Shown: positions 7,798 through 49,165, counted from the stretch's first letter. The stretch: 64,000 bases of DNA from Acidimicrobiales bacterium (GCA_965206165.1 OZ242194.1:1775451-1839450), one strand, 5' to 3'. The notes: a model not told the origin generated them from the letters alone. Program-made: numbers and translations.

Positions 7798-7844
7798 CGG
7801 GATGCCCCTCTGGGCCGCCGCGGGTCGACCGGTAGGCTGAGCGG

Positions 7845-30065: not shown

Positions 30066-30125
30066 ACCCAGAGCGGCTGGTGATGTTCAGGTCGCTGGCG
30101 AGGGCCGCTCCGCCCGAGCCGCTCA

Positions 30126-31163: not shown

Positions 31164-31314
31164 GCAGCCGAGCCTAATGGACCGCGCTTGTCTACCTGGC
31201 CGTCAACCGCCCACCGAGCACCGTCGCGCTGCTGGCTGCCGGCAGGCGTGCGCGGCGGTGATCGGGCCGTCGCTCACCCGACGACGGATCCAAGCCCGCA
31301 GCGGTCTGCGCGGT

Positions 31315-32286
31315 TCAGTCGAAGAGGGTCGGCTGGGGTGGCGGCGATGGCCGGTCCGCCTCGAACGGCTCCCCGTCGGCACGTTCCGCGGGTTCCAGCA
31401 CCGCCGCTTCGAGTTCGTCGAGCGACGTGACCGGCACGGCTCCCCGTTCCTCGAGTTGCGCGTTGCCGGGACCCTCACCCGGCCCTCGCCAAACGGCGAC
31501 CCGACCGAAGCCACCTTTGAGAGCCTGCACGGCGCCCGACCAGGTGCCGCCCTTGTCCACTTCGCTGGCGACGACGAGGGTAAGCGCGGACAAGGCGTAG
31601 ATGAGCCGGTTGCGCCCCATGGCGTTACCGACGCTGAAGGGCGCTTCGGGGTTGTAGGGGGTGCACATGATCGTGCGGCCCTCGTGGATCGCCCGGCGCA
31701 CGTCGGGACTGCGGAGCTTGCGAACCAGCGACTCCGCCAGCACGCCCACCACAACTCCGCCCGCCTCGAAGGCGGCGTTCATTGCGATCTGATCCACCCC
31801 GCGGGCACCGCCGGACACGAGTGGGAGACCCAGCCGGGCCGCCAACTCCGCCGACGCCCCGGCAACGTCGGCGCCGTCGGGAGACACGTTGCGGCTGCCG
31901 ACGACCCCCACGCCTGGCTCGCCGAGCAAGTCGACGGCTCCCGCCGCGTAAAGCAACGCCGGCGCAGCCGACCCGAGCCGCTCGACGAACCGGCGAGGGT
32001 AGTGCTCGTCGAACGGTGTGAGCGTCGAGATGCCCGCCTGCCCGAGGCGCTCCAACTCGAAAGCGATCGCCGTTGCCCGGTCCAGCAACTCGACGATCTT
32101 CGCGGCCAGGTCGGCGGCCAGACCGTGCTCGCCGACAAGCTTGGTCTCGTCGGCGCCCAGAAGCAGGCTCGGCCCGCCGACCAGGTCGCACAGCCCCCAG
32201 AACTCCGACGCCTTCAGGGGCCGGACCTCGTCGTGGCCGATCCGGCTCAACAGCAGGATCGTCGCCAGCGAATCGTCGTGACTCAC
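31315..32286 (-). CDS. DprA/Smf-fold DNA-processing protein-like
   Basis: Rossmann-type DprA motifs GVVGSRNVSPDG, LVSGGARGVDQIAMNAA, GNAMGRNRLIYAL and GGTWSGA. The GTG at 32286 overlaps the upstream gene's TGA (GTGA), implying translational coupling. Confidence 0.85.
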   Translation of the reverse strand: MSHDDSLATILLLSRIGHDEVRPLKASEFWGLCDLVGGPSLLLGADETKLVGEHGLAADLAAKIVELLDRATAIAFELERLGQAGISTLTPFDEHYPRRFVERLGSAAPALLYAAGAVDLLGEPGVGVVGSRNVSPDGADVAGASAELAARLGLPLVSGGARGVDQIAMNAAFEAGGVVVGVLAESLVRKLRSPDVRRAIHEGRTIMCTPYNPEAPFSVGNAMGRNRLIYALSALTLVVASEVDKGGTWSGAVQALKGGFGRVAVWRGPGEGPGNAQLEERGAVPVTSLDELEAAVLEPAERADGEPFEADRPSPPPQPTLFD

Positions 32287-34448
32287 GTGACCGATCTCCC
32301 GGCCGTGTCGGCCAACGCGAACGGGTACACCGGGCCAGCGCCGGCCTCGCGGAGCGTCCCGCCCACGACCGTCAGCGTCCATTTGGAGTCGACGATGTCG
32401 TCCACGAGTAGAACCGGTTCGGAGGCGACGGTCCCACGAATATCGAATGCCTCCCGCACGTTTGCGTACTGTCGGCGGCTGTTCTGCATCGTCTTCTGGG
32501 GCTCAGTGTCCCGGATCTTCACGACGACATCTTCACACGGGAGCCCCAGCGCCGTTGCCAGCCGCTCGGCGAAGTCCGCCACCAACCCGGGATTCCGCAG
32601 CGAGGGCACGAAGGTCACCCAGGTCGGTGGTGGTGCCGGCTTCCAGCGATTCCGGATCAGATCCCCGGCAGCGCTGACGAGTTGGTCATCGAATCGCCCC
32701 AGTTCCTGCTTGCCCGCCCGGACGAGGCGTCCCCAGCCGCTGTCACCCCACACCGACAGCGCATGCCCCGGCTCGAGCCGATGGTCGGCTGCTATCCGAC
32801 CTCCACCCGGTATCTGCTTGCGGGGTTCAATGGCTCGCCCGGCTTTGCGTAGGTGATCCACTGCATGCTGGACGGTCGCCGGGTCGAATGGGATGGCGAG
32901 GCTGTCACCGGTGCAGTTGTCGCAGATCCCGCACGGCTCCGCCGTCGTATCGTCGAGATAGAGCCCGAGCAGTTGCATGCGACACCGGTCCGTGCGGACG
33001 TAGTCGAGCATCTGCCCCTGCTCGGTCCTGCGCAGGGCGGTTACCGACTCGACCCGGGCGTGGTCGAACGTCCATTCCCCGAGAGTTCGCAGCCAGCGGT
33101 TGCCGGCGCGCTCGACTGCACCGTCGACCTCCAGGTTCTTGAGAAGCGACTCCATCTGCGTCGACCGGACATTGAAGGATGCGAGCAGGTCGCCGGTGGA
33201 CATTGGCTCTGCCCGCTCCTCGAGGAGTGCCACGACGCGTTCAGCGAGATCAGGGGGAGGGAACGCCGAGCGGATGAAGTAGTCCTGGATGTCGGCGTCC
33301 TCGGTGCCGCGCAGCAGGATGCCCCAGGATGTATCGAGCGCCCGCCCGGCACGGCCGACCTGCTGGTAGTACGCAATCGGCGATCCCGGCGACTGGTAGT
33401 GGATCACGAAGGAGAGGTCGGGCTTGTCGAAGCCCATGCCGAGTGCCGAGGTGGCCACCACCGCCTTCACCTCGTTGGATAGGAGGGCCTGCTCGGTTTC
33501 GATCCGCTCGTCGGAATCCGTGCCGCCGCTGTAGGCGATGGCGTTGATTCCCACCGATCGCAGCCAGCCCGCAACCCGCTCGGTGTCGGCGACGGTGAGG
33601 CAGTACACGATGCCTGTCCCGTCCAGTTCCGGGATCACCTCGGCGAGCCAGGTCAGGCGCTCGGCCTGCGAGGGGATGTCGAGCGCGTGCAGTCGCAGGC
33701 CGGCGCGCCGCAGCGGACCCCGCACCAGGGGAAGACCCGAGCCGAGTTGTATGGCGACATCCTCAGTCACGCGGTCGTTCGCAGTTGCCGTGCAGCACAG
33801 GACGGGTACGCCGGCCGGCAGGAGCCCCAGAACACGGGTGATGCGCCGGTAGTCGGGGCGGAAGTCGTGGCCCCAGTCGGAGATGCAGTGCGCCTCGTCG
33901 ATAACAAGGAGGCCGCTGCGACGTCCGACCTCAGGCAGGACCTCGGTGCGGAACTTCGGGTTGGCCAGCCGCTCGGGCGAGATCAGCAGCAGGTCGACTA
34001 CGCCCTCGGCGAGCCTCCCCAGTACGAGATCCCAATCGGCTTGGTTGGTGCTGTTGATCGTCTCGGCTCGCACCCCCATCCGCTGCGCCGCCTCGATCTG
34101 GTTGCGCATGAGCGCCAGCAGCGGCGAGACCAGCAGCGTCGGCCCGGTGCCCCGGTCCCGCAGCATGCGGGTGGCGATGAAGTACACGGCGCTCTTGCCC
34201 CACCCGGTCCGCTGCACCAGCAGCACCCGCTCCCGCCGCCCCACCAGCCGCTCGATCGCCTCCAGCTGGCTCGGCCGAAAGTCCGCCCCCGGATCCCCGG
34301 TGAGCCGCCGCAGCAACTCCAGAGCCTCACGACCGAGCGAATCGCCCGCTGCCACTACGTCGACCAGTTGCCTCATGTCCCCAGAGCGTACGAACCTCCT
34401 GTGACACACCACGGTGTCGCGACCGAGTCGAACCGCGTGGCGTGCCAT
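32283..34448 (-). CDS. RecQ-family helicase fused to a C-terminal ComF/ComFC-like phosphoribosyltransferase-fold domain
   Basis: Walker A QRTGWGKS. RecQ DEAH box VIDEAHCISDWGHDFRPDY. Motif VI YYQQVGRAGR. Cys cluster CRMQ...CGICDNC. The C-terminal 170 aa or so carry TWVTFVPS, QKTMQNSRRQYANVREAF and PVLLVDDIVDSKWT. The start is ATG 34448 (GGAG upstream) or ATG 34376. Confidence 0.85.
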   Translation of the reverse strand: MARHAVRLGRDTVVCHRRFVRSGDMRQLVDVVAAGDSLGREALELLRRLTGDPGADFRPSQLEAIERLVGRRERVLLVQRTGWGKSAVYFIATRMLRDRGTGPTLLVSPLLALMRNQIEAAQRMGVRAETINSTNQADWDLVLGRLAEGVVDLLLISPERLANPKFRTEVLPEVGRRSGLLVIDEAHCISDWGHDFRPDYRRITRVLGLLPAGVPVLCCTATANDRVTEDVAIQLGSGLPLVRGPLRRAGLRLHALDIPSQAERLTWLAEVIPELDGTGIVYCLTVADTERVAGWLRSVGINAIAYSGGTDSDERIETEQALLSNEVKAVVATSALGMGFDKPDLSFVIHYQSPGSPIAYYQQVGRAGRALDTSWGILLRGTEDADIQDYFIRSAFPPPDLAERVVALLEERAEPMSTGDLLASFNVRSTQMESLLKNLEVDGAVERAGNRWLRTLGEWTFDHARVESVTALRRTEQGQMLDYVRTDRCRMQLLGLYLDDTTAEPCGICDNCTGDSLAIPFDPATVQHAVDHLRKAGRAIEPRKQIPGGGRIAADHRLEPGHALSVWGDSGWGRLVRAGKQELGRFDDQLVSAAGDLIRNRWKPAPPPTWVTFVPSLRNPGLVADFAERLATALGLPCEDVVVKIRDTEPQKTMQNSRRQYANVREAFDIRGTVASEPVLLVDDIVDSKWTLTVVGGTLREAGAGPVYPFALADTAGRSVT

Positions 34449-34576
34449 CTGGAGTCTCCGAGTGGGGTGATTGCCTACTAGTCCCGTCACTCTGGTCTAG
34501 CTCTGGCCCAGTGCGCGAGGAGCGAGCCGATTTGCACGTTTGCAGGCTCAGCTACGTCGCGCTGAGGAAAGATCGG

Positions 34577-35290
34577 TCAGGTCTGCGGTTCGAACCCGGG
34601 TAGATGAATTTTCTCGATTCGATCTGTACTTCGCTTCGCCCAGCGCATGATCTCGACCGCGCTGGGGTGATCCGTCGCGTGGAACATCTGGTACTGCGGG
34701 CGACCGCTGCTCGGATCTATGATCGTCTGTGGGAATACGTACTGATAGCCAAGCCCACGAAGACGATCGGCGAACCGGCATATGAGTGCACTGGATGGAC
34801 GTTGACTCTCCCATAAGTCCCACCAAGCATCTCGCCCACCCAACATGCGATCAAGCGTTTGGGGGCTGAACGACTCGGGATACCGGATACGGTCACGGGG
34901 CCATAGCCGGTTGATCACCTGATGCGAATTGAAGAGAATCCACAGTTCGACTTTGCAGCGCTTGGAGTTCTCTCCCGGCGGCGGTGGCACATAGGTCTTC
35001 CAGGCAGCAAGTGCCTCGATTGTTCGCCAGTCAAGCTGCGTCGACTCCTGATCTAAAAGAGCGAAACAGGGACGCTGCTCGTCAAGGTTGCCGCTGTCCA
35101 GAAGTGCGGGAATCACCACGTTGCAGTCTCCCGGGAGGATGTGGATCCGGCTGCGTTGTCGGGCACTCAAGGACTGAATTGCAGTTTCGAGCGTCTGGAG
35201 ATGCGTACTATTCTTTTCGACGAGGTAAAGATGAGCAAATGCCCGGCTCGTGGCTGCGATAAGAGAGGATCCATCGGAATCGAAAGGGTC
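34577..35290 (-). pseudogene. tcmP: TcmP (three-Cys-motif partner protein)-like gene, 5'-truncated by the IS30 end
   Basis: The reading frame continues out of the IS30 left end. Gene-derived sequence starts at DPFDSDGSSLIAATSRAFAHLYLVEKN and runs 237 aa to the stop. It lacks the N-terminal 50 aa or so of the family. Confidence 0.65.
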
Positions 35291-36033
35291 GGCCAGTTCC
35301 ATCGGTCGGTGCACGGTTCCGGTCATGATGACCGGTGCCAACACAAGCACCAACCGATGGAGGTACCAGCATGCCAGGCGCACCGCTGGAGTTGCACGAA
35401 CGCGAGGAGATCTTCCGCGCGCTGGTCGAGGATCTGCAGGCGGGTTGGGCCGCTATCGGTCGTCGGGTGGGTCGACATCCCACGACGGTGGCCCGGGAGA
35501 TCAACGCCGGGGGCGGCCGTGAGCGCTACGGGCCGGCGGCGGCGCAGCGGCGCGCCGAGGTGGCGCGGCGACGGGCGCGGCGGCGCCGCTTGGAGGCGCC
35601 GGGGCCGCTGCGGGACCGCATCTGCGCTGAGTTGCGCCGGGGGCGTTCCCCCGCGGCGATCCGCGCGGACCTCGCCGCGGAGGGCGTGGAGGCGCCGCCG
35701 TGCGTCGAGACCGTCTACCAGGCGCTCTACAGCGGTGCCCTGGACGTGAAACCCGCTGAGTGTCTGCGCCGCCGCCGCCGGCGCAGACGCTGCCGGCAAC
35801 AGCGCAACCCCCGGTCGCGGCCGGGCGGGCCGAACATCGCCGCCCGCCCCGCGGCGGTGAACGAGCGCGCCGAGGCGGGCCACTGGGAGGTCGATCAGAT
35901 CATCGGCGCCTACAACCGGTCCTCGATGATCTGGTTGACCGAACGCCAAAGCCGCTACCTGATACCGGTCACCATGCCCGACGGTTACGACGCCGACGCC
36001 GTCCTCGCCGGCCTCATCGAGGGCCTCGACACC
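35291..36033 (+). mobile_element. IS30-family element copy A: left inverted repeat plus 5' two-thirds of the transposase, truncated
   Basis: IRL is GGCCAGTTCCATCGGTCGGTGCACGG at 35291. The transposase ATG is at 35371 (MPGAPLELHEREEI..., HTH, then HWEVDQIIG...MIWLTERQSRYL). Homology to copy B stops after ...GLDT at about 36033. Confidence 0.8.
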
Positions 36034-36812
36034 CCGGCGTCTTCGGCGGGGTCGACACGCACAAGCACACCCACGTCGCAGCGGTCCTCGACGCCGCCGG
36101 GCGTCTGCTGGGCACCGCAGCATTCGACGCGGACACCGCCGGCTACGCCGCGCTGCTGGAGTGGCTCAGGGGCCACGGCAGCGTCGAGCGCGTCGGTGTG
36201 GAGGGGACCGGCTCCTACGGCGCGGGCCTCGCCCGCAGCCTCGCAGCCGCGGACGTCGACGTCGTCGACGTGAACCGCCCCAACCGCCAGATGCGCCGCC
36301 GCCGCGGCAACACCGACACCGTCGACGCGGAGGCAGCAGCGCGGGCCGCGCTCAACGGCGACGCCGCGGTGGCGCCCAAGAGCGCCGACGGGTGCGTCGA
36401 GGCGATCAGGACCCTCGGCGTGGCGCGCCGCTCCGCGGTCAAGGCCCGCACCGTTGCCGCCAACCAGATCGACGCTGTCGTCGTGACCGCCCCCGAGCAC
36501 CTCAAAGACCGCCTGCGGACGCTGAACACAGCCCGCACCGTGGAGGCCTGCGCCCGGCTGCGACATCCCGGCACAGACAGCGATCCTGTGCTCGCCGCGG
36601 CCAAGCAGGCGCTGCGCTCCCTGGCCCGCCGCCACCAGGCGCTCACCGCGGAGATCAAGCACCTCGACGCCGAGCTGCGCCGCCTGTGCGAACGAGTCAA
36701 CCCGGCGCTGCTGGGCGCTCGCGGCGTCGGCGCTGAGACCGCGGCTGCGCTGCTCGTCGCCGCCGGGGACAACCCCGACAGGATGCGCAGCGAGGCGTCG
36801 TTCGCCGCCCTC
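36034..36812 (+). mobile_element. IS110-family transposase fragment (both ends missing)
   Basis: The fragment begins inside the DEDD domain (GVFGGVDTHKHTHVAAVLD) with no start codon. It carries VGVEGTGSYG and ends in the Transposase_20 region at ...SEASFAAL, where the sequence switches to AT-richer DNA. Confidence 0.8.
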
Positions 36813-37106
36813 TTGGTTCCGCCAATCCCGAAGCCTCGACGATAATGTAATTGAGACTGCTACCCCGGTGGGCGAACTGGTCGATGGCGTCGTCAAGGTT
36901 TTCTCCTTCCAGGCTGCAGCAGATGCAGCTGTTGCTCAGATCCAAAGCCACGTCGGTCTGGAAGAAACGAGCATCGAGTCGATGTTGACCTCGCCGAAGT
37001 CGTTGATAATGGCGCCGAGTTTCAGGCGCTGGTCGTTCTTAAGGAGATGGTTGAGCAGGCTGGTTTTGCCGGCTCCCACGATGCTGGTTAATATTTTCCC
37101 AGTCTT
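36813..37106 (-). pseudogene. CobW/G3E-family P-loop GTPase remnant (frameshifted, 3'-truncated)
   Basis: The minus strand reads ...ILTSIVGAGKTSLLNHLLKNDQRLKLGAIINDFGEVNIDS, then needs a frameshift near 36962 to continue as ...DLSNSCICCSLEGENLDDAIDQF...YIIVEASGLAEP. No convincing start codon is present, and the remnant ends at the IS110 junction. Confidence 0.65.
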
Positions 37107-37153
37107 TATTATCTGTCAGTTTGAAGATTCGACACTTTGTTCTTGTATGTTTG

Positions 37154-37191
37154 TGACTGCCGCTCTCCTATTAAAAAGAGAGCGGCAGTCA
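37154..37191 (-). terminator. Perfect 14-bp stem hairpin 30 nt downstream of the acidic-repeat gene (putative terminator)
   Basis: TGACTGCCGCTCTC-(10 nt A/T loop)-GAGAGCGGCAGTCA was read directly. There is no classical U-tract after the stem. Confidence 0.45.
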
Positions 37192-37220
37192 ATCCGGGGC
37201 AATCAACCTTAGCGTAATGC

Positions 37221-38327
37221 CTAGAAATCAGTCCATCTTCCTGACACCCATTCACCTTCTCTGGGATGATCAAGGTGATAGCATGCAGGAATAAATATAT
37301 CGAAGTACCATTCTTCTCCGTATTCGAAACAAGCCAGCTGAGCCGTCAAGAACTCGAATTCCGCGAACGTTTGACCGACACACATGCCCCACGTTACATC
37401 CCACTCGCAATTATGCTGGTTACCCAAATCGCGTATGGCGATTTGGGTATCTTCGGGGTGATTGTGGCATTGCTTATACTCATCCTCGTACCAGCCGCAA
37501 GCAGTTGTAAAATCATGGATCCTCATCACTTCCTCCCAAAAATCACTATTGGGAGGAAGTGGACCTAGATTTTCTGGAGCGGCGGTCGTCGTAGTCGTCG
37601 GCACTTCGATATCCTCCTCTTCCTGTTGATCCTCAACCGGAGCGGCGGTCGTCGTAGTCGTCGGCTCTTCAACCGGAACGGTCGTCGTAGTCGTCGGCAC
37701 TTCCGGGTCCTCCTCTTCCTGTTGATCCTCAACTGGAGCGGTGGTCGTCGTAGTCGTCGGCTCTTCAACCGGAACGGTCGTCGTAGTCGTCGGCGGTTCC
37801 TCGGGACCCTCCTCTGGTGATCTGGTGCCGAGCGGTTCCTCGGCATCGTCTTCTACCTGCTGGTCTTCAGCCGGAGCGGCGGTCGTCGCGGTCGCCGGCG
37901 CCTCCTCGGCATCGTCTTCTACCTGCTGGTCTTCAGCCGGAGCGACGGTCGTCGCGGTCGCCGGCCCTTCCGAGTCCTCCTCTTCCTGCTGATCTTCAAC
38001 TGGAGCGACGGTCGTCGCGGTCGCCGGCCCTTCCGAGTCCTCCTCTTCCTGTTGATCTTCAACTGGAGCGGTGGTCGTCGTGGTCGTCGGCCCTTCCGAG
38101 TCCTCCTCTTCCTGCTGGTCTGTGCCGACTTGTTCCGGTTCGGAGACTGTTTGACCCGTTGTCTCGACTCCCTGCTCTTCCTTTTCCGCATCATCGTCGG
38201 TCAACTGCCAGGCGGCGTAAACGCCTGCTGCGACAATGATGATGCCGGCGGCGGTCCACAGGGCTCCTTTCAAGGACAAAGAGATGCCTTTGAACATGGA
38301 TTTACTTCCCGCGTTTCTGGTATCCAT
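37221..38327 (-). CDS. Membrane-anchored hyper-acidic Thr/Glu/Asp repeat protein with a Cys-rich C-terminal domain (orphan)
   Basis: N-terminal TM helix (ALWTAAGIIIVAAGVYAAW). About 250 aa of 21-aa-type acidic repeats (APVEDQQEEEDSEGPATATTV). A C-terminal domain of about 110 aa holds 6 Cys and many Trp/Tyr. Codon third positions are far more A/T-rich than in the neighbours. An alternative start at ATG 38297 follows GGGAAG. Confidence 0.7.
   Translation of the reverse strand: MDTRNAGSKSMFKGISLSLKGALWTAAGIIIVAAGVYAAWQLTDDDAEKEEQGVETTGQTVSEPEQVGTDQQEEEDSEGPTTTTTTAPVEDQQEEEDSEGPATATTVAPVEDQQEEEDSEGPATATTVAPAEDQQVEDDAEEAPATATTAAPAEDQQVEDDAEEPLGTRSPEEGPEEPPTTTTTVPVEEPTTTTTTAPVEDQQEEEDPEVPTTTTTVPVEEPTTTTTAAPVEDQQEEEDIEVPTTTTTAAPENLGPLPPNSDFWEEVMRIHDFTTACGWYEDEYKQCHNHPEDTQIAIRDLGNQHNCEWDVTWGMCVGQTFAEFEFLTAQLACFEYGEEWYFDIFIPACYHLDHPREGEWVSGRWTDF
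37577..38125 (-). repeat. In-frame tandem coding repeats (about 63-bp units and variants) within the acidic protein gene
   Basis: Repeated blocks such as GGTCGTCGCGGTCGCCGGCCCTTCCGAGTCCTCCTCTTCCTG(C/T)TGATCTTCAACTGGAGCG are visible on the plus strand. Confidence 0.8.
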
Positions 38328-38337
38328 ATCGTGTGTC

Positions 38338-39396
38338 GGCCAGTTCCATCGGTCGGTGCACGGTTCCGGTCATGATGGCCGGTGCCAACACAAGCACCGA
38401 CCGATGAAGGTACCAGCATGCCAGGCGCACCGCTGGAGTTGCACGAACGCGAGGAGATCGGCCGCGCGCTGATGGCTGACCCGATGGCGAGTTGGGCGGC
38501 GGTCGCCCGCCGGGTGGGTCGTCACCCGTCGACGATCGCCCGGGAGGTCGACCGCGGGGGTGGTTGTGGCCGCTACGGACCGGCGACGGCGCAGCGGCGC
38601 GCCGAGCGGGCGTCGCGCCGCCCGCGGCGGCGCCTCTTGGCGGTTCGGGGCGCCGCTGCGGGAACGGATCGCCACCGAGTTGCGCCTGGGGCGCTCCCCG
38701 GTGGCGATCCGGTCGGACCTCGTCGCCGAGGACGCGCCGGGGCGGCCCTGCGTGGAGACCATCTACCAGGCGATCTATGACGGCGCGCTGGGGGTGCGCC
38801 CGAGTGAGTGTCTGCGCAGCCGCCGCCGGCGGCGGCGACCGCGACAATGCCGCAGGTCAACGAGGCGCCCGACGCCGGCGAACATCTCCAGGCGACCAGA
38901 CGCGGTCAACGACCGCCGCGAGGGCGGGCACTGGGAAGGCGACCAGATCATCGGCGCCAACAACCGCTCGTCGATGATCTGGCTCACCGAACGCCAAAGC
39001 CGCTACCTGATACCGGTCACCATGCCCGACGGCTACACCGCCGCCGCCCTCGCCGGCCTCATCGAAGGCTTCGACACCATCCCCGACCGGCTGCGCCGCA
39101 GCGTGACGTTCGATCAAGGCCCCGAATGGGCCAACTGGAGCACCCTGGCCGCCCACTACAGCATCGACGTGTGGTTCTGCGACCCCCACTCGCCGCGCCA
39201 ACGCGGCCAGATCGACAACCTCAACCGCCAAGCGCGCTGATGGTTCCCCCGCGGCACCGACCTCCGCCTCGTCACCCCTGCCCAAGCAGAACACGCCGCC
39301 AACATCATCAACAACCAGCGCCGCCGCAGCCTCAACTACCGAACACCAGCAGAACTGTACGCTGCCCTCACCGTGCACTGACCACTAGAACTGGCC
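38338..39396 (+). mobile_element. IS30-family element copy B, complete ends but inactivated transposase
   Basis: IRL is GGCCAGTTCCATCGGTCGGTGCACGG (38338). IRR (39371-39396) reverse-complements to GGCCAGTTCTAGTGGTCAGTGCACGG. Total length is about 1.06 kb. It is similar but clearly not identical to copy A. Confidence 0.85.
38418..39381 (+). pseudogene. IS30-family transposase with a frameshift (about 38630) and an in-frame TGA (39238)
   Basis: The N-terminal HTH part lies in the frame of ATG 38418. The DDE part (HWEGDQIIG, MIWLTERQSRYL, VTFDQGPEW, CDPHSPRQRGQ) lies in the frame of ORF 38560..39240. After the TGA the same frame continues as WFPRGTDL...RTPAELY. Confidence 0.8.
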
Positions 39397-39601
39397 GTGG
39401 GTTGTTGATGGACAGTGCGATTCGTGAGGATCCGTCCAGTGTCTCGTTTGTATAGCGTTCCCTATTTTCTGGTTGGCCGCCGAAGATATCAAGATAGAGC
39501 ACTTCGGTGGACTTCCCTTTCGTCGTCGTGGTGAACTTATTGAGATACTCGCGCAACATGGCGAGTTTGCCTCGTGTCCAGAAGCCCCAGTATCTTCCCA
39601 T
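39397..39601 (-). pseudogene. tcmP: TcmP-like gene, N-terminal 68 codons only, cut by the IS30 copy B right end
   Basis: MGRYWGFWTRGKLAMLREYLNKFTTTTKGKSTEVLYLDIFGGQPENRERYTNETLDGSSRIALSINNP, after which the frame reads into the IS IRR. The ATG at 39601 lies 4 nt after the Gp37/Gp68 stop. Confidence 0.65.
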
Positions 39602-39604
39602 CGC

Positions 39605-40351
39605 TTATGTGTAGAGAGGTGTCGGCATCTCGTCGTAACGCTTGCCGTCGAGGTCGCGTCCTCTCGCCTTGGGGGTTCGCCCTCCCCATTGCTTGAAGAA
39701 GAAGGCCACGCCGGCCGGTCCGCACTGGTCTCGGAGGTCGCGGACCCAGACTTCCTCCATGGAACGGGCGCCGGGGCCGCTCTCGCCGCCGGCGATCAGC
39801 CAGTCGATGTCGGTGAGGTCGAGATCGGAGAGTGGTCCCAGTAGCGGCTCGGCGCTGACGAAGCGGACCTTGGCGCCGACTCGGCGGAGGTGGTCGACGC
39901 GGAACGCGTAGCGCTCGGTCTCGACGCTCACGCCCATCCAGACGTTGCCGGGCCAGTCCAAATCGCCGGAGAGGTTGAGCAACCTGCGGGAGCGTTTGGT
40001 GAGGATCTGGTAGGTGTGCTGCGGCGTACCGGCCATCACCTCGAACACCTGCCGGATGAAGTCGAGCGGCACGTCGGGGTGGAAGAGGTCGCTCATCGAG
40101 TTGACGAACACCAGCCGCGGTGAGCGCCACGTGTGGGGGATGGCCAGGGTGTCGGGGTGGAGCGTCAGGGCGAAGCCGGGGCCGCTGGTGCGGGGGTCGC
40201 CGTCGTTGCGGTACTTGGGCTGGCCCATGGCCTTGAGCCGCTTGGCGAGCGCGAGCGCATAGCAGTTGTCGCAGCCCGGCGACGTGCGGTCGCAACCCGT
40301 GGTCGGATTCCACGTCGTCTCGGTCCACTCGATGCCCGAACGGTCTGCCAC
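39605..40351 (-). CDS. Phage Gp37/Gp68 (DUF5131) family three-Cys-motif protein
   Basis: The GTG at 40351 follows AAGGAAGAGGA. Motifs: SGIEWTETTWNPTTGCDRTSPGCDNCYA (three-Cys motif), SMSDLFH, ILTKR, SAEPLLGP and IAGGESGPGAR. Confidence 0.85.
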   Translation of the reverse strand: MADRSGIEWTETTWNPTTGCDRTSPGCDNCYALALAKRLKAMGQPKYRNDGDPRTSGPGFALTLHPDTLAIPHTWRSPRLVFVNSMSDLFHPDVPLDFIRQVFEVMAGTPQHTYQILTKRSRRLLNLSGDLDWPGNVWMGVSVETERYAFRVDHLRRVGAKVRFVSAEPLLGPLSDLDLTDIDWLIAGGESGPGARSMEEVWVRDLRDQCGPAGVAFFFKQWGGRTPKARGRDLDGKRYDEMPTPLYT

Positions 40352-40872
40352 AGTCCTCTTCCTTACTCGACTGCCCACGGCCCCGATCCTAGGAACGGGG
40401 TGTGTCAGCCTTGCCGAGCGTCGGCCCCCGGGCCAATCGAGGCGACCGGCCGCGATCCCGCCGCAGCGGCCGCCCAGTCGGGTCCAACTGCCGGACGGTG
40501 ACCGATTGCCACCCGGCTTCGGGGGCGCGCAGTTCGCACAGTTCCAACTGTTCGATGTGTGCGGTGTTAGAGCGTTCGCTGAGCCGCCGCCGGCGCCTGA
40601 TCCGCGCGCACAGCACATGACGGTGCCCGGAGTCACCACCGCGTCGTCCAGCGGTGTCGAGCCCAAAGTTCACAGCCGCCGTCCCGTCACCAACCGCCGT
40701 CTCGGCCGCCCCGGCGCGAACCGCCTCGAAGCTCCGCCCGGCGTGGTCGTTGCTTCTCGGCCGGCCCTAGCCCACCGGTGGGGTCTGCGACGTTCCCTGG
40801 TCGGGGGCAGGCGGCGGCGGCAGGTCCAGTCTCGCCCCTCCCAGCCCTGGCCCCTTCGGCGGGGGTCCTATC

Positions 40873-41622
40873 TCACTGATCGGCGTCGTCGCGACGATGA
40901 CCCCGTAGTCTTCCGGCCTCGGTTCTACGCGCTCGAATGGCCATGCCAATGCCTTCTTGATCTGTTCCCACATCGGTTTCCGTCCTCTCGTCTGCGTGAA
41001 TGAACTCGAGGTACTCGATGTCCTCCCAGCGGAGGAGAACACCGATGTCATCGTGCGCCGCTGCCTGCCAGTCACCTCGCAGTTCGCCCGTTCGAGGGTC
41101 GACATCGATGGTAGCGGCCAGGTACAGGTCCTGCGGTTCGGGGTAGCGCGCCACTACGGACTGCCGACCGTTTACTTCGGCGAACGCGCCCCCGAGCCAA
41201 GTGCCCGATTTCAGCCGACATCGCACCCATCCCCTGCGCCGGTGTTGGAACAGGTGATCCCACGCGCGCGGCGCGCTGCCGATCCCGGAGAGAGCACGCG
41301 TCCACCTGCGGCCTTCCCTGATCCCGCGGCCAAGGATCGTGCCCGCCGTGGTGGGCACGGCCACGTAGGCAAGGGGCACGACCGCCATCCATCTCGGCAG
41401 GGGTTGCCCCGCCACGAACGCGCTCCAGTGGTTGCCGTACAGCCAATACAGCGGCGTAGAGAACAGGGCGAAGAAGACTGCCGAACCGCCGACGAACCGA
41501 AGAATCCGGTCCTTGCGTTGAATGCCGTACTGGCCGGCCAGCCGCTCAAAGGCCCAGGCGGACAGCGCTCCGGGGAGGAAGGCCACGCCGAGCACGGCGG
41601 TTGCCTGGAAGATCGATGACAC
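40873..41622 (-). CDS. Hypothetical membrane protein, tentatively DUF6338-like
   Basis: The N-terminal half has 3-4 hydrophobic helices. The C-terminal half has the pattern PRAWDHLF...VRCRLKSGTWLGG...YPEPQDLYL. The start GTG 41622 (GAAGGGA upstream) or ATG 41700 is uncertain, and the family assignment is from memory only. Confidence 0.55.
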   Translation of the reverse strand: MSSIFQATAVLGVAFLPGALSAWAFERLAGQYGIQRKDRILRFVGGSAVFFALFSTPLYWLYGNHWSAFVAGQPLPRWMAVVPLAYVAVPTTAGTILGRGIREGRRWTRALSGIGSAPRAWDHLFQHRRRGWVRCRLKSGTWLGGAFAEVNGRQSVVARYPEPQDLYLAATIDVDPRTGELRGDWQAAAHDDIGVLLRWEDIEYLEFIHADERTETDVGTDQEGIGMAIRARRTEAGRLRGHRRDDADQ

Positions 41623-41771
41623 CGACTGTCCCTTCGCCTCGTCTCGTCCTGTCCGGGGAAGCCAGGGGAAGCGGTTGCCACTTGGAATCGACCGCAGCAT
41701 ATGGGCCGGACCGATCGGCCACAGCGGGCAGACCGACGCGGGCACGCCGATAGGAGCGTCGTGCCCGGTGC

Positions 41772-41972
41772 TTGAGGCTTCTGACAGTCCCCTACGAGGC
41801 GAAGTTCACTCCCACGGGCGGCGGATACGTCATCGAGTCTGCAGTCGTCACCGGTGACCAAGACACATACAGTCGCTCTTCGGATGAGGACGAGTCACAG
41901 TTTCTCGAGGAGCTCATCGCCGGTTTCCTGCTGGTCCGGCGGGGTGAGTTGCCCTTGGAGGCTGCTGAGTAA
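41772..41972 (+). pseudogene. Fragment homologous to the N-terminal domain of the macro-domain protein at 43800..44747
   Basis: The fragment reads ...FTPTGGGYVIESAVVTGDQDTYSRSSDEDESQFLEELIAGFLL. The full-length gene reads [43 protein letters not shown]. The fragment lacks both the upstream part and the macro domain. Confidence 0.55.
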
Positions 41973-42572
41973 TTCGCCAGGTTCCCTCGGGTGCGTCGAC
42001 GTTCCCGTACTCGTTGTCTCCCCAGCATTGAATGGTGTTGTCGGTGCGCAGCGCGTACGAGTGCGGCCTGCCGGCGATCGCTCAGAGATCGTCTTCGTGC
42101 TCGGCTCCGAACGCCTCCAGGGCGGCCCGAAATGTGGCGCGGGGGACGAGCGTGGCGTCGCCCCTTTCCTCCAGTTCCTCGGCGTAGCGGAGTATGGCGT
42201 CCGATGCGGCGGCCCGGGCGGGCGGCGCGCTGCGGCGCGGCGCAGGATCGGCGGCATCCTGATGTGCGCGGGCTCGTCGGCATCGGGTTCGGCCATGATC
42301 CGACTATCGAGCCCGGCGCCGGCCGGCCGTCGGGCGCTCATGTCGTTTGCGCAATCGTCCTCGTCGATGAAAGCGTCCTCGTCCCCGTACGCATACATGG
42401 CATCGCGTAGCGTGCTATGTGATATCAGCGAAACGTCGCGCTTTACCTCAAGCTCGTCGGCGAGGCAGAGCACGGCATCGCGTTGCGGACCGAGTCGCAT
42501 GCGGTTCGCCGCGCGTCGCAGGATCGGCGGCATCTCGATGTGCGCGGGTTCGGTCAAGTCAGGTGCCGTCAC
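41895..42572 (-). CDS. Hypothetical ORF made of two tandem paralogous modules, the second frameshifted
   Basis: The GTG at 42572 follows GAAGGAG. Module 1 reads VTAPDLTEPAHIEMPPILRRAANRMRLGPQRDAVLCLADELEVKRD... Module 2, from ATG 42295, reads MAEPDADEPAHIRMPPILRRAAARR... Its homologous continuation (ASDAILRYAEELEERGD...EHEDDL, stop about 42082) lies in another frame. Confidence 0.4.
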   Translation of the reverse strand: MTAPDLTEPAHIEMPPILRRAANRMRLGPQRDAVLCLADELEVKRDVSLISHSTLRDAMYAYGDEDAFIDEDDCANDMSARRPAGAGLDSRIMAEPDADEPAHIRMPPILRRAAARRPPGPPHRTPYSATPRNWRKGATPRSSPAPHFGPPWRRSEPSTKTISERSPAGRTRTRCAPTTPFNAGETTSTGTSTHPREPGELLSSLQGQLTPPDQQETGDELLEKL

Positions 42573-42701
42573 GTTGCGACTCCTTCATCGGCATCCAGAA
42601 TATCGAGCACGGCGCCTAGTGCCAGAGACATCGGAACGTGGCTCGGCTCTCCAGACCGAGACCCTGCGCCAACCGGCGGCACTGCCCGCCCCGATTGCCG
42701 G

Positions 42702-42890
42702 CTAGCGGAATCGAGTCGTGCGCATCCGATCGAGGTCGCCTTCCCAACCCGAGCCTCGCATGGCACGGGCCTCCTCGAGGCTCATCGGCTCGTTGGCCAG
42801 CGTCCGAAGGGCCAGATTGACCGCCTCGCGTTTAGGGATAACCCGCATCGATATAACAGTGAACGGATTCTGGCAGTCTGCCTGCGGCAT
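42702..42890 (-). CDS. VapB-family antitoxin-like small protein without an intact toxin partner
   Basis: The C-terminal signature KREAVNLALRTL...MRGSGWEGDLDRMR resembles actinobacterial VapB antitoxins. The N-terminus is atypical. Only a 20-codon ORF follows downstream before the next gene. Confidence 0.5.
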   Translation of the reverse strand: MPQADCQNPFTVISMRVIPKREAVNLALRTLANEPMSLEEARAMRGSGWEGDLDRMRTTRFR

Positions 42891-42917
42891 CGGCCGGAGT
42901 CGGTCGGCCAGGGTGGG

Positions 42918-43181
42918 TCAGCCCGGTCGGTAGACCTCTCGGCGGTGCTGGACTCGGTGGATCAGGACGACCTCATCGACTTCGAGGATCTCGTAGATGA
43001 TGCGGTAGTCGCCGCGGCGGGCGGACCGAAGACCGTCGAGTTCGCCGACGAGTGGCTTCCCGAGCCGCTGAGGATTCTCGGCGATCGGCCCGAAGATGGT
43101 CTCCAGAGCGGCGTGCCGCACCTTTTCGGGCAGCCGGTTGAAATGGCGGAGACCTTCGGGCGTGATCTCGACTTCGTACAC
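42918..43181 (-). CDS. RelE/ParE-family type II toxin
   Basis: 87 aa. ...LDGLRSARRGDYRIIYEI..DEVVLIHRVQHRREVY is typical of RelE/StbE. It lies 10 nt downstream of a Phd/YefM gene. Confidence 0.85.
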   Translation of the reverse strand: MYEVEITPEGLRHFNRLPEKVRHAALETIFGPIAENPQRLGKPLVGELDGLRSARRGDYRIIYEILEVDEVVLIHRVQHRREVYRPG

Positions 43182-43190
43182 CCGGTCTTC

Positions 43191-43454
43191 TCAGACCTGA
43201 TCGCGCAAGCGCAGCAGCTTTCCCTCGGAGGCTTCTCGGCGCGACTTCCGCAGCGACTCCATGAGCGCGTCGTCTTGGAGTATGTCGAGGGATTCCTCCA
43301 GGGACTCGAGATCGTCGGGACTCACGAGCACGAACGAGGGTCGACCGTTGCGGGTCACCAGGATGCGGTCGTGCTGGCGCTCCACCCGGTCGGCGAGTTC
43401 GGATAGATGGGCCTTGACCTCCGAGAACGGGAGTGTGTCGCTCACAGGCACCAA
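43191..43454 (-). CDS. Phd/YefM-family antitoxin
   Basis: 87 aa. ...FSEVKAHLSELADRVERQHDRILVTRNGRPSFVLVSPDDLESLEESLDIL is a classical Phd/YefM pattern. Confidence 0.85.
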   Translation of the reverse strand: MVPVSDTLPFSEVKAHLSELADRVERQHDRILVTRNGRPSFVLVSPDDLESLEESLDILQDDALMESLRKSRREASEGKLLRLRDQV

Positions 43455-43504
43455 TATAGGTCAGAATCTTGACTTATCTCCGCGACCACCGGGGCGGAGG
43501 GGAG

Positions 43505-43728
43505 GGCCGGTTCCATCGGTCGGTGCACGGATCCGGTCATGATGACCGGTGTTTTGAGTGACACCGACCGATGGAGGTACCAGCATGCCTGGCGCTGCGC
43601 CGGGGTTCCGGTTGCACGAACGTGAGCACATCTTTCGCGCGCAGGCCGAGGATGTGGCGGGGAACAAGTCGGCCGCCGAGACGGTGTTCTGCAGGTCTGG
43701 ACGGGTACCCACAGTGACTATTGACTAG
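43505..43728 (+). mobile_element. Solo left-end remnant of a third, more diverged IS30-family element
   Basis: GGCCGGTTCCATCGGTCGGTGCACGGATCCGGTCATGATGACCGG matches the IRL regions of copies A and B. The ATG at 43585 opens a 47-codon stub (MPGAAPGFRLHEREHIFRA...) that ends at TAG 43726. Confidence 0.7.
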
Positions 43729-43799
43729 CTTGCGGTGTTGGACCGGGCCGCGCTGCGTCTCGTCGTGGTCACGCGCGTGCGGCACCTATCGTTGGCGAC

Positions 43800-44747
43800 G
43801 TGACTGCGCGTCGAGGCGACTGGGAGGCCCACCCGCTCACGCACCCGGAGTCGATCCCTTCGCCCACCCGGATCTGGACCTCCGCAGAGATGGACCACAT
43901 CCGAGAGGGCTACATCCCCAGCATGATGGAGGAGAAGTGGTTCATCTTCATGGAGGGGAATCGCTTGTTAGCGCATCGCAGTTGGACAGGACTGGGTGTC
44001 TATGCGGCGAGGTTCGCCCCGGTCGACGGTGGGTACGTCATCAGCTCCGCGGTCGTCACCGGTGACAGGTCCGAATACAAGCGCTCTTCGGATCAGGACG
44101 AATCACTGATTCTCGAAGTGCTCATCGCCGGTCACCTACTGGGTCAATCGCTCTCAGAGTCACAGCTGGCCGACAAGAGCCCGCATCTTCGCTGGGAACT
44201 GGCCGTACCCAACATTCCGAAGGAGATGTTCTTACCGCACGTTGTCGAGATGGAGCGCCCGGAGCCGAACCTCTACCTGGGCGACATCACCGAGCTGGAC
44301 GTCGACGCAATCGTGAATGCGGCTAACTCCACCCTTCTCGGAGGCGGTGGGGTCGACGGGTCCATCCATCGGGCCGCCGGCCCCGAACTCCTCGAGTACT
44401 GCCGCGCCCTGGGGGGCTGCGACACCGGGCAGGCCAAGATCACGCCGGGTTTCAACCTCGCATCCCGGTGGGTGATCCACACCGTCGGACCCGTCTGGCG
44501 CGGTGGCACCCACGGTGAGCCGGAGCTTCTCGCCTCCTGCTACCGGGAGTCACTGGCCCGCGCCGACGAGGTCGGGGCCGAGACCGTCGCCATTCCGGCG
44601 ATCTCGACGGGGGTCTACGGGTACCCGATCGCAGCGGCCGCCGCCATCGCCGTCGAGACCGTTCGTTCCACGCCCACGGACGTGTCCGACGTCATCTTCG
44701 TCGCCTTCAACCAGGAAACCTTCGACGCCTACTCCGCCCTCGGCTGA
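43800..44747 (+). CDS. Macro-domain (MacroD/YmdB-type ADP-ribose-binding/hydrolase) protein with an uncharacterised N-terminal domain of about 130 aa
   Basis: The C-terminal half carries [34 protein letters not shown] and [14 protein letters not shown] did not recognise the N-terminal half. The start is GTG. Confidence 0.85.
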
Positions 44748-44847
44748 GTTCGATACGTTGGGTTCCCATGGGAATCCACGCTGTGAATCCTCCACTGAAA
44801 AGGACCTCCGCGCCTTCTCTCGCCGCTCACGGACAAGGCCGTCGCTC

Positions 44848-45381
44848 GTGACCACGGAACCGACGTTCCCGGTTGCTCCTGAGCTGGCGATCAGCCGTTG
44901 GTTCAACACCGACGACATCCCGACTCTGGCCGACCTCAGAGGCGAGGTCGTCGTACTGGAGGCGTTTCAGATGCTCTGTCCGGGCTGCGTCTCCCACGGG
45001 CTGCCCCAGGCCCAGCGCATCCAGCAGATGTTCGGCGACGAGCTGACCGTGCTCGGGCTGCACTGCGTGTTCGAGCACCACGAAGCCATGACCCCGGTCT
45101 CGCTCGAAGCGTTCCTGTACGAGTACCGCATCAGCTTCCCCGTGGGCGTTGATGCCCATGGGCCCGGAGTCACCACGCCGATCACGATGGGCCGGTACCA
45201 GCTGCGGGGCACACCGAGCCTCGTGGTCATCGACCGGGCCGGGCGCATCCGTGTCCACGCCTTCGGTCAGGCGGACGACCTCCTGGTCGGCGCCACTCTG
45301 GCCCGCCTCATCGACGAACCCCACCCCCAGCCGGCTGACGACTGCGACCCCGACATCGGCTGCCCCGCCCCAACCCGGTAA
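44848..45381 (+). CDS. Thioredoxin-fold redoxin (TlpA/AhpC-TSA-like)
   Basis: The GTG at 44848 is in frame. The motif LEAFQMLCPGCVSHG contains CxxC. ...GTPSLVVIDRAGRI is typical of TlpA-like proteins. Confidence 0.7.
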   Translation: MTTEPTFPVAPELAISRWFNTDDIPTLADLRGEVVVLEAFQMLCPGCVSHGLPQAQRIQQMFGDELTVLGLHCVFEHHEAMTPVSLEAFLYEYRISFPVGVDAHGPGVTTPITMGRYQLRGTPSLVVIDRAGRIRVHAFGQADDLLVGATLARLIDEPHPQPADDCDPDIGCPAPTR

Positions 45382-45468
45382 CTCCACACCTGGGAGAGTG
45401 CCGAGCAATCGACGGCGGGCGTGGTTCGAACCCCAGCGTGTTCGGGAGTGAGATGTTATGATGCGCAT

Positions 45469-45705
45469 ATGCGCACCACAGTGTCGATCGATGATGAGGT
45501 CTACGAGCAAGCCCGGCGGATCGCATTCGAATCGCGCCGGACGCTCGGCGAGGTGATCAACGAACTGCTCGCGGAGGGACTCAAGGTCGTTGCCCCAGCA
45601 CCGGCGCGTCGCCGTCTCGGGCAGCTGCGAGGCACCATCAGGATCGCCGACGACTTCGACGACACGCCTCGCGAAGTGCTGGACTCGCTCGACGCCGCGC
45701 TCTGA
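45469..45705 (+). CDS. vapB: VapB-type (ribbon-helix-helix) antitoxin
   Basis: The product begins MRTTVSIDDEVYEQARRIAFESRRTLGEVINELL. The stop overlaps the vapC ATG (ATGA). Confidence 0.8.
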   Translation: MRTTVSIDDEVYEQARRIAFESRRTLGEVINELLAEGLKVVAPAPARRRLGQLRGTIRIADDFDDTPREVLDSLDAAL

Positions 45706-46085
45706 TGGCGCGACTCCTGCTCGACACCCACGTTCTGCTCTGGGCCAACGAGGCGCCGGAACGGCTCTCCGCCGAAGCAGTCGCCGCGCTGGAGGACCCG
45801 GCCAATGACCTGCTGGTGTCGTCGGTCTCGGTCGCCGAGATCGAGATCAAGCGACGGCTCGGCAAGCTGGCCACGGAGCACAGTTGCCGGACACTCGGAT
45901 CACAACTCGGCGCGATCTGGCTCGACCTGACTGCTGCTCACGCCATGGGGCTGCGCACGCTCCCCAATCTTCATGCCGATCCGTTCGACCGGCTCCTCAT
46001 CGCGCAGGCGCTGGCTGAGGAGTGCACACTCGTTACCGCCGACAAGACGGTGCTCGCCTACCCGCTGCTGACGCTCACCGCGTAA
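45705..46085 (+). CDS. vapC: PIN-domain ribonuclease toxin VapC
   Basis: LLLDTHVLLW, SVAEIEIK, and DPFDRLLIAQA...LVTAD supply the PIN acidic residues. Confidence 0.88.
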   Translation: MARLLLDTHVLLWANEAPERLSAEAVAALEDPANDLLVSSVSVAEIEIKRRLGKLATEHSCRTLGSQLGAIWLDLTAAHAMGLRTLPNLHADPFDRLLIAQALAEECTLVTADKTVLAYPLLTLTA

Positions 46086-46126
46086 CGAACCGTTGGCCGG
46101 CGCCGGCGCCGGCGCCCGGCCGCCAC

Positions 46127-47902: not shown

Positions 47903-47973
47903 GCCATATCGTGCCAGATCGTGGCCCCGAATACGCCGACACGCCCGCTGGGTGACCCCGGAGGTGTTCGAGG

Positions 47974-48954: not shown

Positions 48955-49165
48955 TCTGCGGCCCGGTCCCTCCGGGCGGCGGGTGACCGGAATTGTCGTT
49001 CCCGCGAGCGCCGGACCCCAGGGGTCGGCGCCGCGGCCGCACGAGTGGATTCCGGCTTTCGCCGGAATGACATTCAACGAGAGTGGCGGTGATTATGCCG
49101 GTCTGCCCTCCCGTGCATGACTACGATCAGACAGAGTCACGTCGGTCCAACTTGGGAGGACGACT

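Follow-up and report, generated by a model that had tools for sequence, protein, structure and literature searches.

Core defense hotspots are chromosomal sites at which several immune systems lie together between core genes. At cDHS1 and cDHS2 of P. aeruginosa (Johnson et al. 2023, PMC10250203) and at hotspot #37 of E. coli (Hochhauser et al. 2023, PMC10121019), almost no genome that has the site leaves it empty, and no single mobilizing element is responsible for its content. Johnson et al. proposed that the contents of such hotspots are transferred by homologous recombination through the conserved flanks (PMC10250203). Here we describe a locus with the same features in an Acidimicrobiales bacterium (G000). 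It comprises positions 31315-46085 (14.8 kb) of a 64,000-nucleotide window, which corresponds to 1775451-1839450 in a closed genome of 3.67 Mb, and it lies between a metE-like gene and the gene pair accA/birA, an interval of 15.0 kb here. We conclude, with a probability of roughly 0.8, that the interval is an old, genus-conserved chromosomal island of defense and toxin-antitoxin genes, of the core defense hotspot type, held at a fixed site between these housekeeping genes.

The left edge of the island is formed by PsyrTA, also called RqlHI. In this system a helicase-associated phosphoribosyltransferase (PRTase) domain is genotoxic and a DprA-like protein restrains it (Russell & Mulvey 2015, PMC4670107). 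Validation of PsyrTA as a toxin-antitoxin system is credited in PMC8790059 to Sberro et al. 2013; growth inhibition by the toxin, its neutralization by the partner and phage defense are known for the P. syringae and E. coli F11 homologues (PMC8790059, PMC4670107). Related loci number more than 598 across bacterial phyla, plus one archaeon.

We identified genes by profile scans with Pfam, NCBIfam and PADLOC, and mapped the proteins of the window onto the intervals of the eight congeners whose contigs are long enough to cover the full interval (G002, G003, G007, G012, G013, G014, G016 and G017). G002 is the sister species of G000, and G018, G019 and G020 represent the sister genus. RpoB identity among the species compared is 92-97 %, and 97 % between G000 and G002. 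Positions refer to the window unless a genome coordinate (C1) or a contig (L) is named.

A conserved interval with a variable core

The same genes bracket the interval in all nine genomes. On the left lies the metE-like gene (30126-31163, minus strand, 345 amino acids; catalytic domain Meth_synt_2, PF01717, 124.6 bits), which is core to the genus, with orthologues 83-97 % identical in 15 of 17 genus genomes. On the right, Pfam identifies AccA, the acyl-CoA carboxylase alpha subunit with biotin carboxylase and biotin carboxyl carrier (BCCP) domains (46127-48250, minus strand), and next after it BirA (47974-48954, plus strand), an adjacency that is kept even in the sister genus. A sequence-only reading of the window had described accessory genes (defense, toxin-antitoxin and mobile) as filling the space between these housekeeping blocks. 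The profile scans bear this out and recovered every item on its list at the position given, the VapB-like orphan only weakly.

The interval measures 6.8 kb in G016, 13.4 in G017, 16.9 in G007, 18.3 in G003, 20.2 in G012, 20.6 in G014, 20.8 in G002 and 23.8 in G013. Common modules occupy it in all eight congeners, largely in the same order, and define a common backbone of PsyrTA, TcmP-DUF5131, hsdMSR, ParE-Phd, macro, redoxin and VapBC. PsyrTA stands next to metE-like in G002, G003, G007, G013, G014 and G016, as it does in the fragmentary genome G015; in G012 it lies at the opposite end of the interval. A type I restriction-modification operon, hsdMSR, sits mid-interval in seven of the eight (G002, G003, G007, G012, G013, G014 and G017). 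DUF5131 is found in six (absent from G016 and G017), ParE in seven, accompanied by Phd in five of those (Phd is absent from G003 and G016), the macro gene in seven, the redoxin in five and VapBC in four. PsyrTA, type I restriction-modification or both are present in every one of the nine intervals, and the content varies among genomes through presence and absence of genes, TcmP type and exchange. The intervals of the relatives also hold STAND-like ATPases, NYN proteins, ISL3 and IS30.

The alignment of G000 with its sister species locates this variation. It is 91.3 % identical from metE-like into psyrT (30113-34411) and 94.3 % identical from the macro gene through birA (43744-49000). This collinearity shows that the backbone is continuous with the housekeeping flanks and that the island's edges and the flanks are of equal age. 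Only a core at about 34.4-43.7 kb is variable.

In 1-kb windows the genome has a GC content of 68.5 +/- 3.2 %, and three patches of the island depart from it: 34.5-35.5 kb, the region of the TcmP C-terminal fragment (59.0 %, z = -3.0), 36.5-38.5 kb, which holds the cargo genes described below (54-57 %, z = -3.5 to -4.5), and 35.5-36.5 kb, made of IS30 and IS110 DNA (75.6 %, z = +2.2). Outside these patches the island stays within -1.5 to +1.1 standard deviations. The abrupt changes that had been noted from the sequence are thus real but local. GC content at third codon positions (GC3) is 0.80-0.85 for PsyrA, PsyrT, DUF5131, ParE, Phd, macro, redoxin and PIN, with a genomic median of 0.79, and falls to or below the 1st percentile only in the TcmP fragments (0.62-0.63) and the acidic-repeat gene (0.59).

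Because the backbone is common to eight species and has native GC3, we regard it as ancestral to the genus. The sequence-only reading had taken the whole stretch for a variable island, and had allowed that the same genes in the same place with normal composition in relatives would instead mark a conserved region. Its proposal stands for the core; for the backbone, the latter pattern is what the eight species show.

Descent and probable exchange at the site

We compared trees of the concatenated flanks (metE-like, AccA and BirA), of RpoB and of PsyrA plus PsyrT, and applied the approximately unbiased (AU) test to the PsyrTA alignment. The flank and RpoB trees agree: G000 and G002 are sisters, joined by G012 and G013, and G016 falls with G003, G007 and G017. 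The PsyrTA tree instead places G016 with G000 and G002 (97/99) and G013 with G003 and G007 (100/100), and the AU test on the PsyrTA data rejects both flank groupings (p = 1.2e-62 and 4.4e-5). The conflict of the PsyrTA tree with flanks and RpoB points to exchange of alleles between species at the locus, and fits the flank-recombination proposal of Johnson et al. (PMC10250203). The view that this is a long-lived recombination hotspot and not a recent element, first put forward from the sequence, gains support from this conflict and from the variation in content among congeners.

Other genes give a mixed picture. The tree of hsdM and hsdR roughly follows the two RpoB clades. Between G000 and G002, ParE/Phd is 77 % identical at the nucleotide level inside a region that is 94 % identical, and the TcmP fragment of G000 matches the G002 protein at 67 % where the adjoining DUF5131 matches at 88 %. 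AccA and BirA identities diverge from the metE-like pattern. Our best reading of this mosaicism is replacement of alleles by homologous recombination among congeners at a fixed locus, a mechanism that we infer from the pattern of identities and trees.

The flanks are mosaic as well. BirA of G000 is 93 % identical to that of G002 versus 55-63 % to those of six other congeners, and in G012 AccA is 76 % and metE-like 97 % identical. Recombination tracts seem to extend from the island out into accA and birA.

Age of the island

No island gene lies within 9-16 kb of accA-birA in the three genomes of the sister genus, which also lack the metE-like gene. In G011, a member of the genus with a reduced 2.6-Mb genome, the flanks lie far apart and a divergent PsyrTA (69 % and 51 %) is found elsewhere. 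In more distant Acidimicrobiales, PsyrTA occurs in unrelated neighborhoods. The absence in the outgroup, the arrangement in G011 and these distant PsyrTA contexts together indicate that the island is specific to the genus, and it was probably assembled near the base of the genus.

The surroundings of accA differ in the sister genus. There (GC content 57-60 %), immediately past accA in G019 (L101) and G020 (L100), at the place that the island takes in this genus, come the genes of the suf Fe-S cluster, which G000 has on the opposite side of birA, at 52.7-63.5 kb of the window. Because the placement of suf differs between the genera, the island's left border falls on a breakpoint of rearrangement between the two. 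Beside accA in G018 (L099 reverse-complemented, 5221-8657) are two genes whose translations resemble, by eye, an XRE-HTH/ImmA-type peptidase and a DNA methyltransferase-HNH fusion; the accA-proximal site may attract defense-like genes in the sister genus too.

Alternative explanations

A block of accessory genes between housekeeping genes, with low-GC patches, transposase genes and a DUF5131 gene whose family is named for the phage proteins Gp37 and Gp68, might be the remnant of an integrative element (a prophage, an integrative and conjugative or mobilizable element, or a large transposon) that entered in one piece and has since lost its integrase. We consider such an origin highly improbable. 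The 64-kb window holds no tRNA gene, in line with what the sequence-only reading had noted for tRNA and integrase genes at the borders, and the region matches no Rfam family. No tyrosine recombinase is encoded within 70 kb: the ten PF00589 matches of the genome all fall outside the window. The borders have neither an integrase gene nor a tRNA or tmRNA target. The direct repeats that the same reading had suggested looking for at about 31.2 and 46.1 kb are not there. The only repeat pair that spans the region (D20, 18 nucleotides, at 32655 and 46166) was rejected as an attachment site, both copies lying inside genes. None of the scanned open reading frames (ORFs) contains a phage structural or conjugation domain, and the transposases inside the island are dead DDE types only. 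A one-block entry is also at odds with a backbone that is compositionally native and genus-wide, with divergence that tracks the flanks only approximately and a PsyrTA tree that conflicts with the flank tree, and with an IS30 lineage that is scattered over the genomes of relatives (at least 12 copies in G012) and not bound to this site.

The opposite explanation is that the interval is plain ancestral chromosome, a run of genus-core genes inherited strictly vertically that is not usefully called an island or a hotspot. It has this in its favor: the backbone is in place in eight congeners and native in GC3, G000 and G002 are collinear over the island edges at flank-level identity, and the hsdMR tree roughly tracks the RpoB clades. 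Against it stand a content that differs in every genome over a range of 6.8-23.8 kb, lineage-specific losses of PsyrT, hsdMSR, TcmP, DUF5131 and the entire right-hand module, and insertions of IS30, ISL3 and IS110. Strictly vertical descent is further contradicted by the PsyrTA phylogeny, which rejects the flank topology, by the lack of the island beside accA in the sister genus, by its breakup in G011, and by the occurrence of PsyrTA in other contexts in more than 598 loci across phyla. We therefore think this explanation improbable, and favor a genus-conserved defense island at a fixed site.

Several points weigh against that preferred interpretation. The whole interval was seen in nine of about 17 genus genomes, the remainder being fragmented. 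The macro and redoxin genes may be ordinary housekeeping genes and not defense genes, and PsyrTA gave no phage protection in one heterologous E. coli test (bioRxiv 10.1101/2024.12.20.629700). The species tree consists of RpoB alone, which resolves two clades, and of three flank genes that are mosaic; with RpoB resolution this poor and flanks of this kind, the number and direction of the exchanges are uncertain. The groups submitted to the AU test came from other trees but were chosen after all trees had been seen. Finally, the order of the right-hand modules differs between species, so the ancestral order given below is a parsimony guess.

Evolution of the locus

In the history that we propose, the island would have taken shape no later than in the common ancestor shared by most of the species in the genus, and would have been inherited mostly vertically since then. 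The ancestral order may have been PsyrA-PsyrT, TcmP-DUF5131, hsdM-small ORFs-hsdS-hsdR, ParE-Phd, macro, redoxin and VapBC. Turnover would have come about in three ways: by homologous recombination among congeners via the conserved flanks and backbone, with replacement of alleles, evident in the case of PsyrTA and likely in those of TcmP and ParE/Phd; by insertion of IS30, IS110 and ISL3 with small cargo; and by deletion. In the G000 lineage, compared with its sister species, the type I restriction-modification operon would have been lost, and an insert bounded by IS30, with an IS110 fragment, the CobW remnant and the acidic-repeat gene of low GC inside it, would have been gained, destroying TcmP. 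PsyrTA, ParE/Phd, VapBC, the macro deacetylase, the redoxin, DUF5131 and DUF6338 are likely still functional in G000. Anti-phage activity, and a stabilizing (addiction) role of the three toxin-antitoxin modules, would be expected.

The locus departs from known core defense hotspots in several respects. Our comparison is between species of a genus, not strains, and comprises nine genomes; PsyrTA, DUF5131, hsdMSR, ParE/Phd and VapBC are largely retained across these species and are not replaced by many different systems; and no tRNA or tmRNA gene borders the island, unlike the cDHS sites of P. aeruginosa. It is tempting to speculate that a stable multi-system immune locus was kept at one site through the diversification of the genus, with toxin-antitoxin modules anchoring both edges (PsyrTA the left, ParE/Phd and VapBC the right) and alleles of individual systems swapped between species by homologous recombination, not by mobile elements. 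We offer this only tentatively, at somewhat less than even odds. If true, it would mean slower, allele-based evolution of defense, as opposed to the rapid turnover by presence and absence that is usually described.

The components of the locus are either known (PsyrTA, ParE/Phd, VapBC) or catalogued candidates (PDC-M41), and no new kind of biology is involved. What is less usual is how deep the conservation runs, with most systems persisting at one site across species and allele exchange prevailing over wholesale replacement. The locus thus offers a worked example of a defense hotspot in the Acidimicrobiales, a poorly studied and mostly uncultured group, at a site conserved across species and not just strains. 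It also records what appear to be a dated loss of type I restriction-modification and an IS-mediated knockout of a candidate DUF5131-TcmP system. For annotation, the pair of a RecQ-PRTase protein and a DprA-like protein is to be named PsyrTA. Reasonable candidates for defense functions are the unassigned genes that keep turning up in the interval: DUF6338, the small ORFs found within the hsd operon, the N-terminal part of the macro protein and the module of three genes in G002.

The PsyrTA system

The pair of a RecQ-PRTase fusion and a DprA-like protein at the left edge is not a new system: it is PsyrTA (RqlHI), present in full. PsyrT/RqlH, the predicted toxin (32283-34490, minus strand), is a RecQ-family helicase with a C-terminal PRTase-like domain. 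It scores 900.4 bits against the PADLOC PsyrT profile, over positions 7-686 of 689, with further matches to TIGR00614 (226 bits) and to the Pfam domains DEAD (77.9), Helicase_C (62.5) and RecQ_Zn_bind (26.7 bits); the Pribosyltran match is weak (21.3 bits, residues 640-718, under the cut-off). The closest named relatives of the protein are from metagenome-assembled genomes of Acidimicrobiales. PsyrA/RqlI, the DprA-like antitoxin partner (31315-32382, minus strand), scores 266.5 bits for PADLOC PsyrA and 114.6 bits for PF02481. The two ORFs overlap at 32283-32382 on the same strand, which fits an operon. The PsyrA proteins of relatives align only from residue 29 of the listed ORF; the true start of psyrA is probably near 32298, overlapping the psyrT stop.

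The arrangement, a helicase with a C-terminal PRTase followed by a DprA-like partner on the same strand, is that of described PsyrTA/RqlHI systems, and both PADLOC profiles are matched over their full length. It differs from them in its high-GC Acidimicrobiales host and in the sub-threshold Pfam match of the PRTase domain.

In G017, a single PsyrA gene lies beside metE-like (L095 reverse-complemented, 1112-2122) and PsyrT has been lost. This PsyrA is an orphan antitoxin left behind after loss of the toxin.

Probable loss of type I restriction-modification

The hsdMSR genes of the congeners are recognized by PADLOC (MTase_I 605, Specificity_I 433 and REase_I 143 bits), and hsdM and hsdR are 85-94 % identical between species. 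In the G000 island we found no match to them and no remnant, even at E = 1; elsewhere in that genome there is just a paralogue of 30 % identity. Since the sister species G002 has kept hsdMSR, a recent loss in the G000 lineage is the simplest reading, and the event would postdate the split of the two species; we infer its direction. The small ORFs and the macro fragment are ordered differently in the two genomes, and a single deletion from a G002-like arrangement therefore cannot explain the loss. G016 lost hsdMSR independently. The sequence-only reading had missed both this loss, which is the main event in G000, and the identity of the PsyrTA pair.

In G017, hsdR matches in two pieces only (query residues 1-160 and 393-940). 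In G002, three plus-strand genes of 292, 221 and 234 amino acids lie between hsdM and hsdS (L001 11222-13476). They gave no significant Pfam or PADLOC match and one sub-threshold match to HTH_23; the first two have homologues of 81-86 % in G000 at C1:2041662-2043199, outside the window. This insert may be a small mobile module, possibly related to defense.

The broken DUF5131-TcmP pair and its insert

The DUF5131 gene (Gp37/Gp68, three-Cys; 39605-40666, minus strand; PF07505 323.9 bits, PDC-M41B 358.6 bits) corresponds to PDC-M41B/M30B, matching the two profiles at 339-359 bits, and its orthologues in the six relatives are 78-88 % identical and in the same place. Directly downstream lies an N-terminal fragment of TcmP (39368-39601, minus strand; TIGR04474 positions 2-67, 46.8 bits), broken off where IS30 copy B has its right end. 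A query with the G002 protein missed this fragment, and only the TIGR04474 profile recovered it. A C-terminal fragment lies in the ORF 34577-35383 (minus strand; TIGR04474 positions 54-257, 105.3 bits; PDC-M41A 53 bits; GC3 0.62). The true TcmP sequence there runs from about 34589 to 35284, the first 31 codons of the ORF being antisense to an IS30 end, and it is identical at 67 % to residues 90-322 of the G002 TcmP. The island pair is a broken copy of the PADLOC candidate system PDC-M41, with the three-Cys protein present and no intact TcmP adjacent to it. It combines DUF5131 and TcmP (TIGR04474) as the PDC-M41 and PDC-M30 candidates do, and intact pairs occupy the same place in G002, G013, G014 and G012. 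Unlike those, the TcmP partner here consists of two non-identical fragments 4 kb apart, split by IS30, IS110 and cargo.

The type of TcmP varies beside the conserved DUF5131. It is PDC-M41A (327 amino acids) in G002, G013 and G014, and PDC-M30A with a GMT-wHTH domain (406 amino acids, low GC) in G012 (L003 1856-3076 vs L001 4417-5400 in G002); G003 and G007 have DUF5131 without any TcmP. A second pair, of a TcmP-like protein of about 340 amino acids and a DUF5131 protein of 263, is apparently intact at C1:326360-328237, with the gene order reversed relative to the island and a low GC3 of 0.68-0.69. It could compensate for the broken island pair.

The segment between the fragments begins with IS30 copy A (35290-36033, plus strand; HTH_38 33.8 bits), a left inverted repeat plus the N-terminal two-thirds of a transposase, truncated, and 77 % identical to residues 1-232 of the intact IS30 transposase of G012. 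An IS110-family transposase fragment follows (36034-36845, plus strand, in the ORF 35760-36845; PF01548 82.1 bits; NF033542 129.5 bits against a cut-off of 140, positions 2-257 of 343). Next come a remnant of about 45 codons of a CobW/G3E GTPase gene (36697-36951, minus strand; PF02492 32 bits, positions 55-98 of 180; TIGR02475 25.4 bits) and a gene whose translation is a membrane-anchored, hyper-acidic protein of Thr/Glu repeats (63/96-nucleotide repeats) with a Cys-rich C-terminal domain (37221-38327, minus strand). This gene has a GC content of 54 % (z = -4.5), and its product has no Pfam match. The segment closes with IS30 copy B (38340-39396, plus strand; HTH_38 40.1 bits, rve 30.1 bits), which is full length with 26-nucleotide terminal inverted repeats; its transposase is frameshifted, recovered in two frames, and has one internal TGA stop.

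One account of 35290-39396 alone is that the low-GC cargo, the CobW remnant and the acidic gene, arrived as an IS30-bounded composite transposon that landed in TcmP, the left copy being truncated later by IS110. The two IS30 copies are in direct orientation, the outer left repeat (35290) abuts the C-terminal and the outer right repeat (39396) the N-terminal TcmP fragment, the composition of the cargo is foreign, and the TcmP-DUF5131 pair is uninterrupted in G002. We nevertheless find the account rather doubtful. Copies A and B are just 81 % identical (over 748 nucleotides), the outer 3-nucleotide flanks differ (GTC vs GTG), and both transposases are dead. In addition, both TcmP fragments cover about 14 of the same profile positions (54-67) and the two are not identical, so that a single insertion into one gene is insufficient.

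A third, left-end IS30 fragment of about 150 nucleotides (43505-43656, plus strand; repeat families D6, D8 and D10) is 80 % identical to copy A. The three closely related IS30 copies of G000 are all in the island, and two distant members of the family are elsewhere in the genome. We rejected the idea of an island-specific lineage: G012 has at least 12 near-identical scattered copies, and G002 and G013 have several elsewhere. G012 and G013 also carry IS30 within the island. The copies here are relics of a genus-wide insertion sequence.

A single partial paralogue of the acidic-repeat protein's Cys-rich C-terminal domain lies at C1:1494635-1495002 (74 % nucleotide identity over 377 nucleotides); it too matches no family. 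A match of 39267-39397 to the genome at 699.8 kb was discarded, since this sequence is part of the transposase of IS30 copy B and is unrelated to CobW.

The right-hand genes

Right of DUF5131 lies a DUF6338 membrane protein gene (40873-41745, minus strand; PF19865 99.4 bits), also found in the islands of G013 (94 %, split by IS30) and G017 (76 %). A decayed fragment of 66 codons (41772-41972, plus strand) derives from the N-terminal domain of a second macro gene; it is 68 % identical to 44001-44141 and 82 % identical, at the nucleotide level, to the upstream macro copy of G002. A small ORF duplicated in tandem follows (41895-42572, minus strand; repeat D9), which has no Pfam match and persists in G000 as an orphan though the hsd genes are gone. 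Its family, of about 90-120 codons with the motif EPAHI.MPPILRRAA, lies between hsdM and hsdS in G007, G012, G013, G014 and G017 and forms tandem repeats that reach about five copies in G012 (L003 9777-10744). The ORFs 41854-42705 (plus), 42483-43406 (plus) and 45501-45881 (minus) match no family and were set aside as antisense shadows of real genes.

A VapB-like orphan antitoxin remnant without a toxin (42702-42890, minus strand) is suggested by a sub-threshold match to PF09957 (17.6 bits). Beside it are a toxin of the ParE/RelE superfamily (42918-43181, minus strand; PF05016 45 bits) and, directly upstream with a spacer of 9 nucleotides, a Phd/YefM antitoxin (43191-43454, minus strand; PF02604 69.5 bits), 62-85 % identical to those of relatives. 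By gene content and order this is a predicted canonical type II toxin-antitoxin pair.

The intact macro-domain gene (43800-44747, plus strand; PF01661 155.7 bits; NF001664 231.6 bits) encodes a protein of the O-acetyl-ADP-ribose deacetylase type that also has an unassigned N-terminal domain, about 130 amino acids long. The AhpC/TSA-type redoxin gene (about 44752-45381, plus strand; PF00578 26.1 bits) starts at 44503 in the listed ORF, overlapping the macro gene; its orthologues in G007 have about 160 amino acids.

At the right edge, a VapB-like antitoxin gene of 94 codons (45421-45705, plus strand; VapB_antitoxin 16.5 bits, sub-threshold) precedes the gene of a PIN-domain VapC toxin (45705-46085, plus strand; PF01850 48.6 bits). 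The two are very likely a type II toxin-antitoxin pair, although the VapB match is below threshold. As in type II modules generally, the small antitoxin gene precedes the toxin gene in both pairs (ParE_toxin/PhdYeFM and PIN); the sub-threshold VapB call and the extra VapB-like remnant without a toxin depart from the standard arrangement. The VapBC pair is conserved in G002, G007, G013 and G016.

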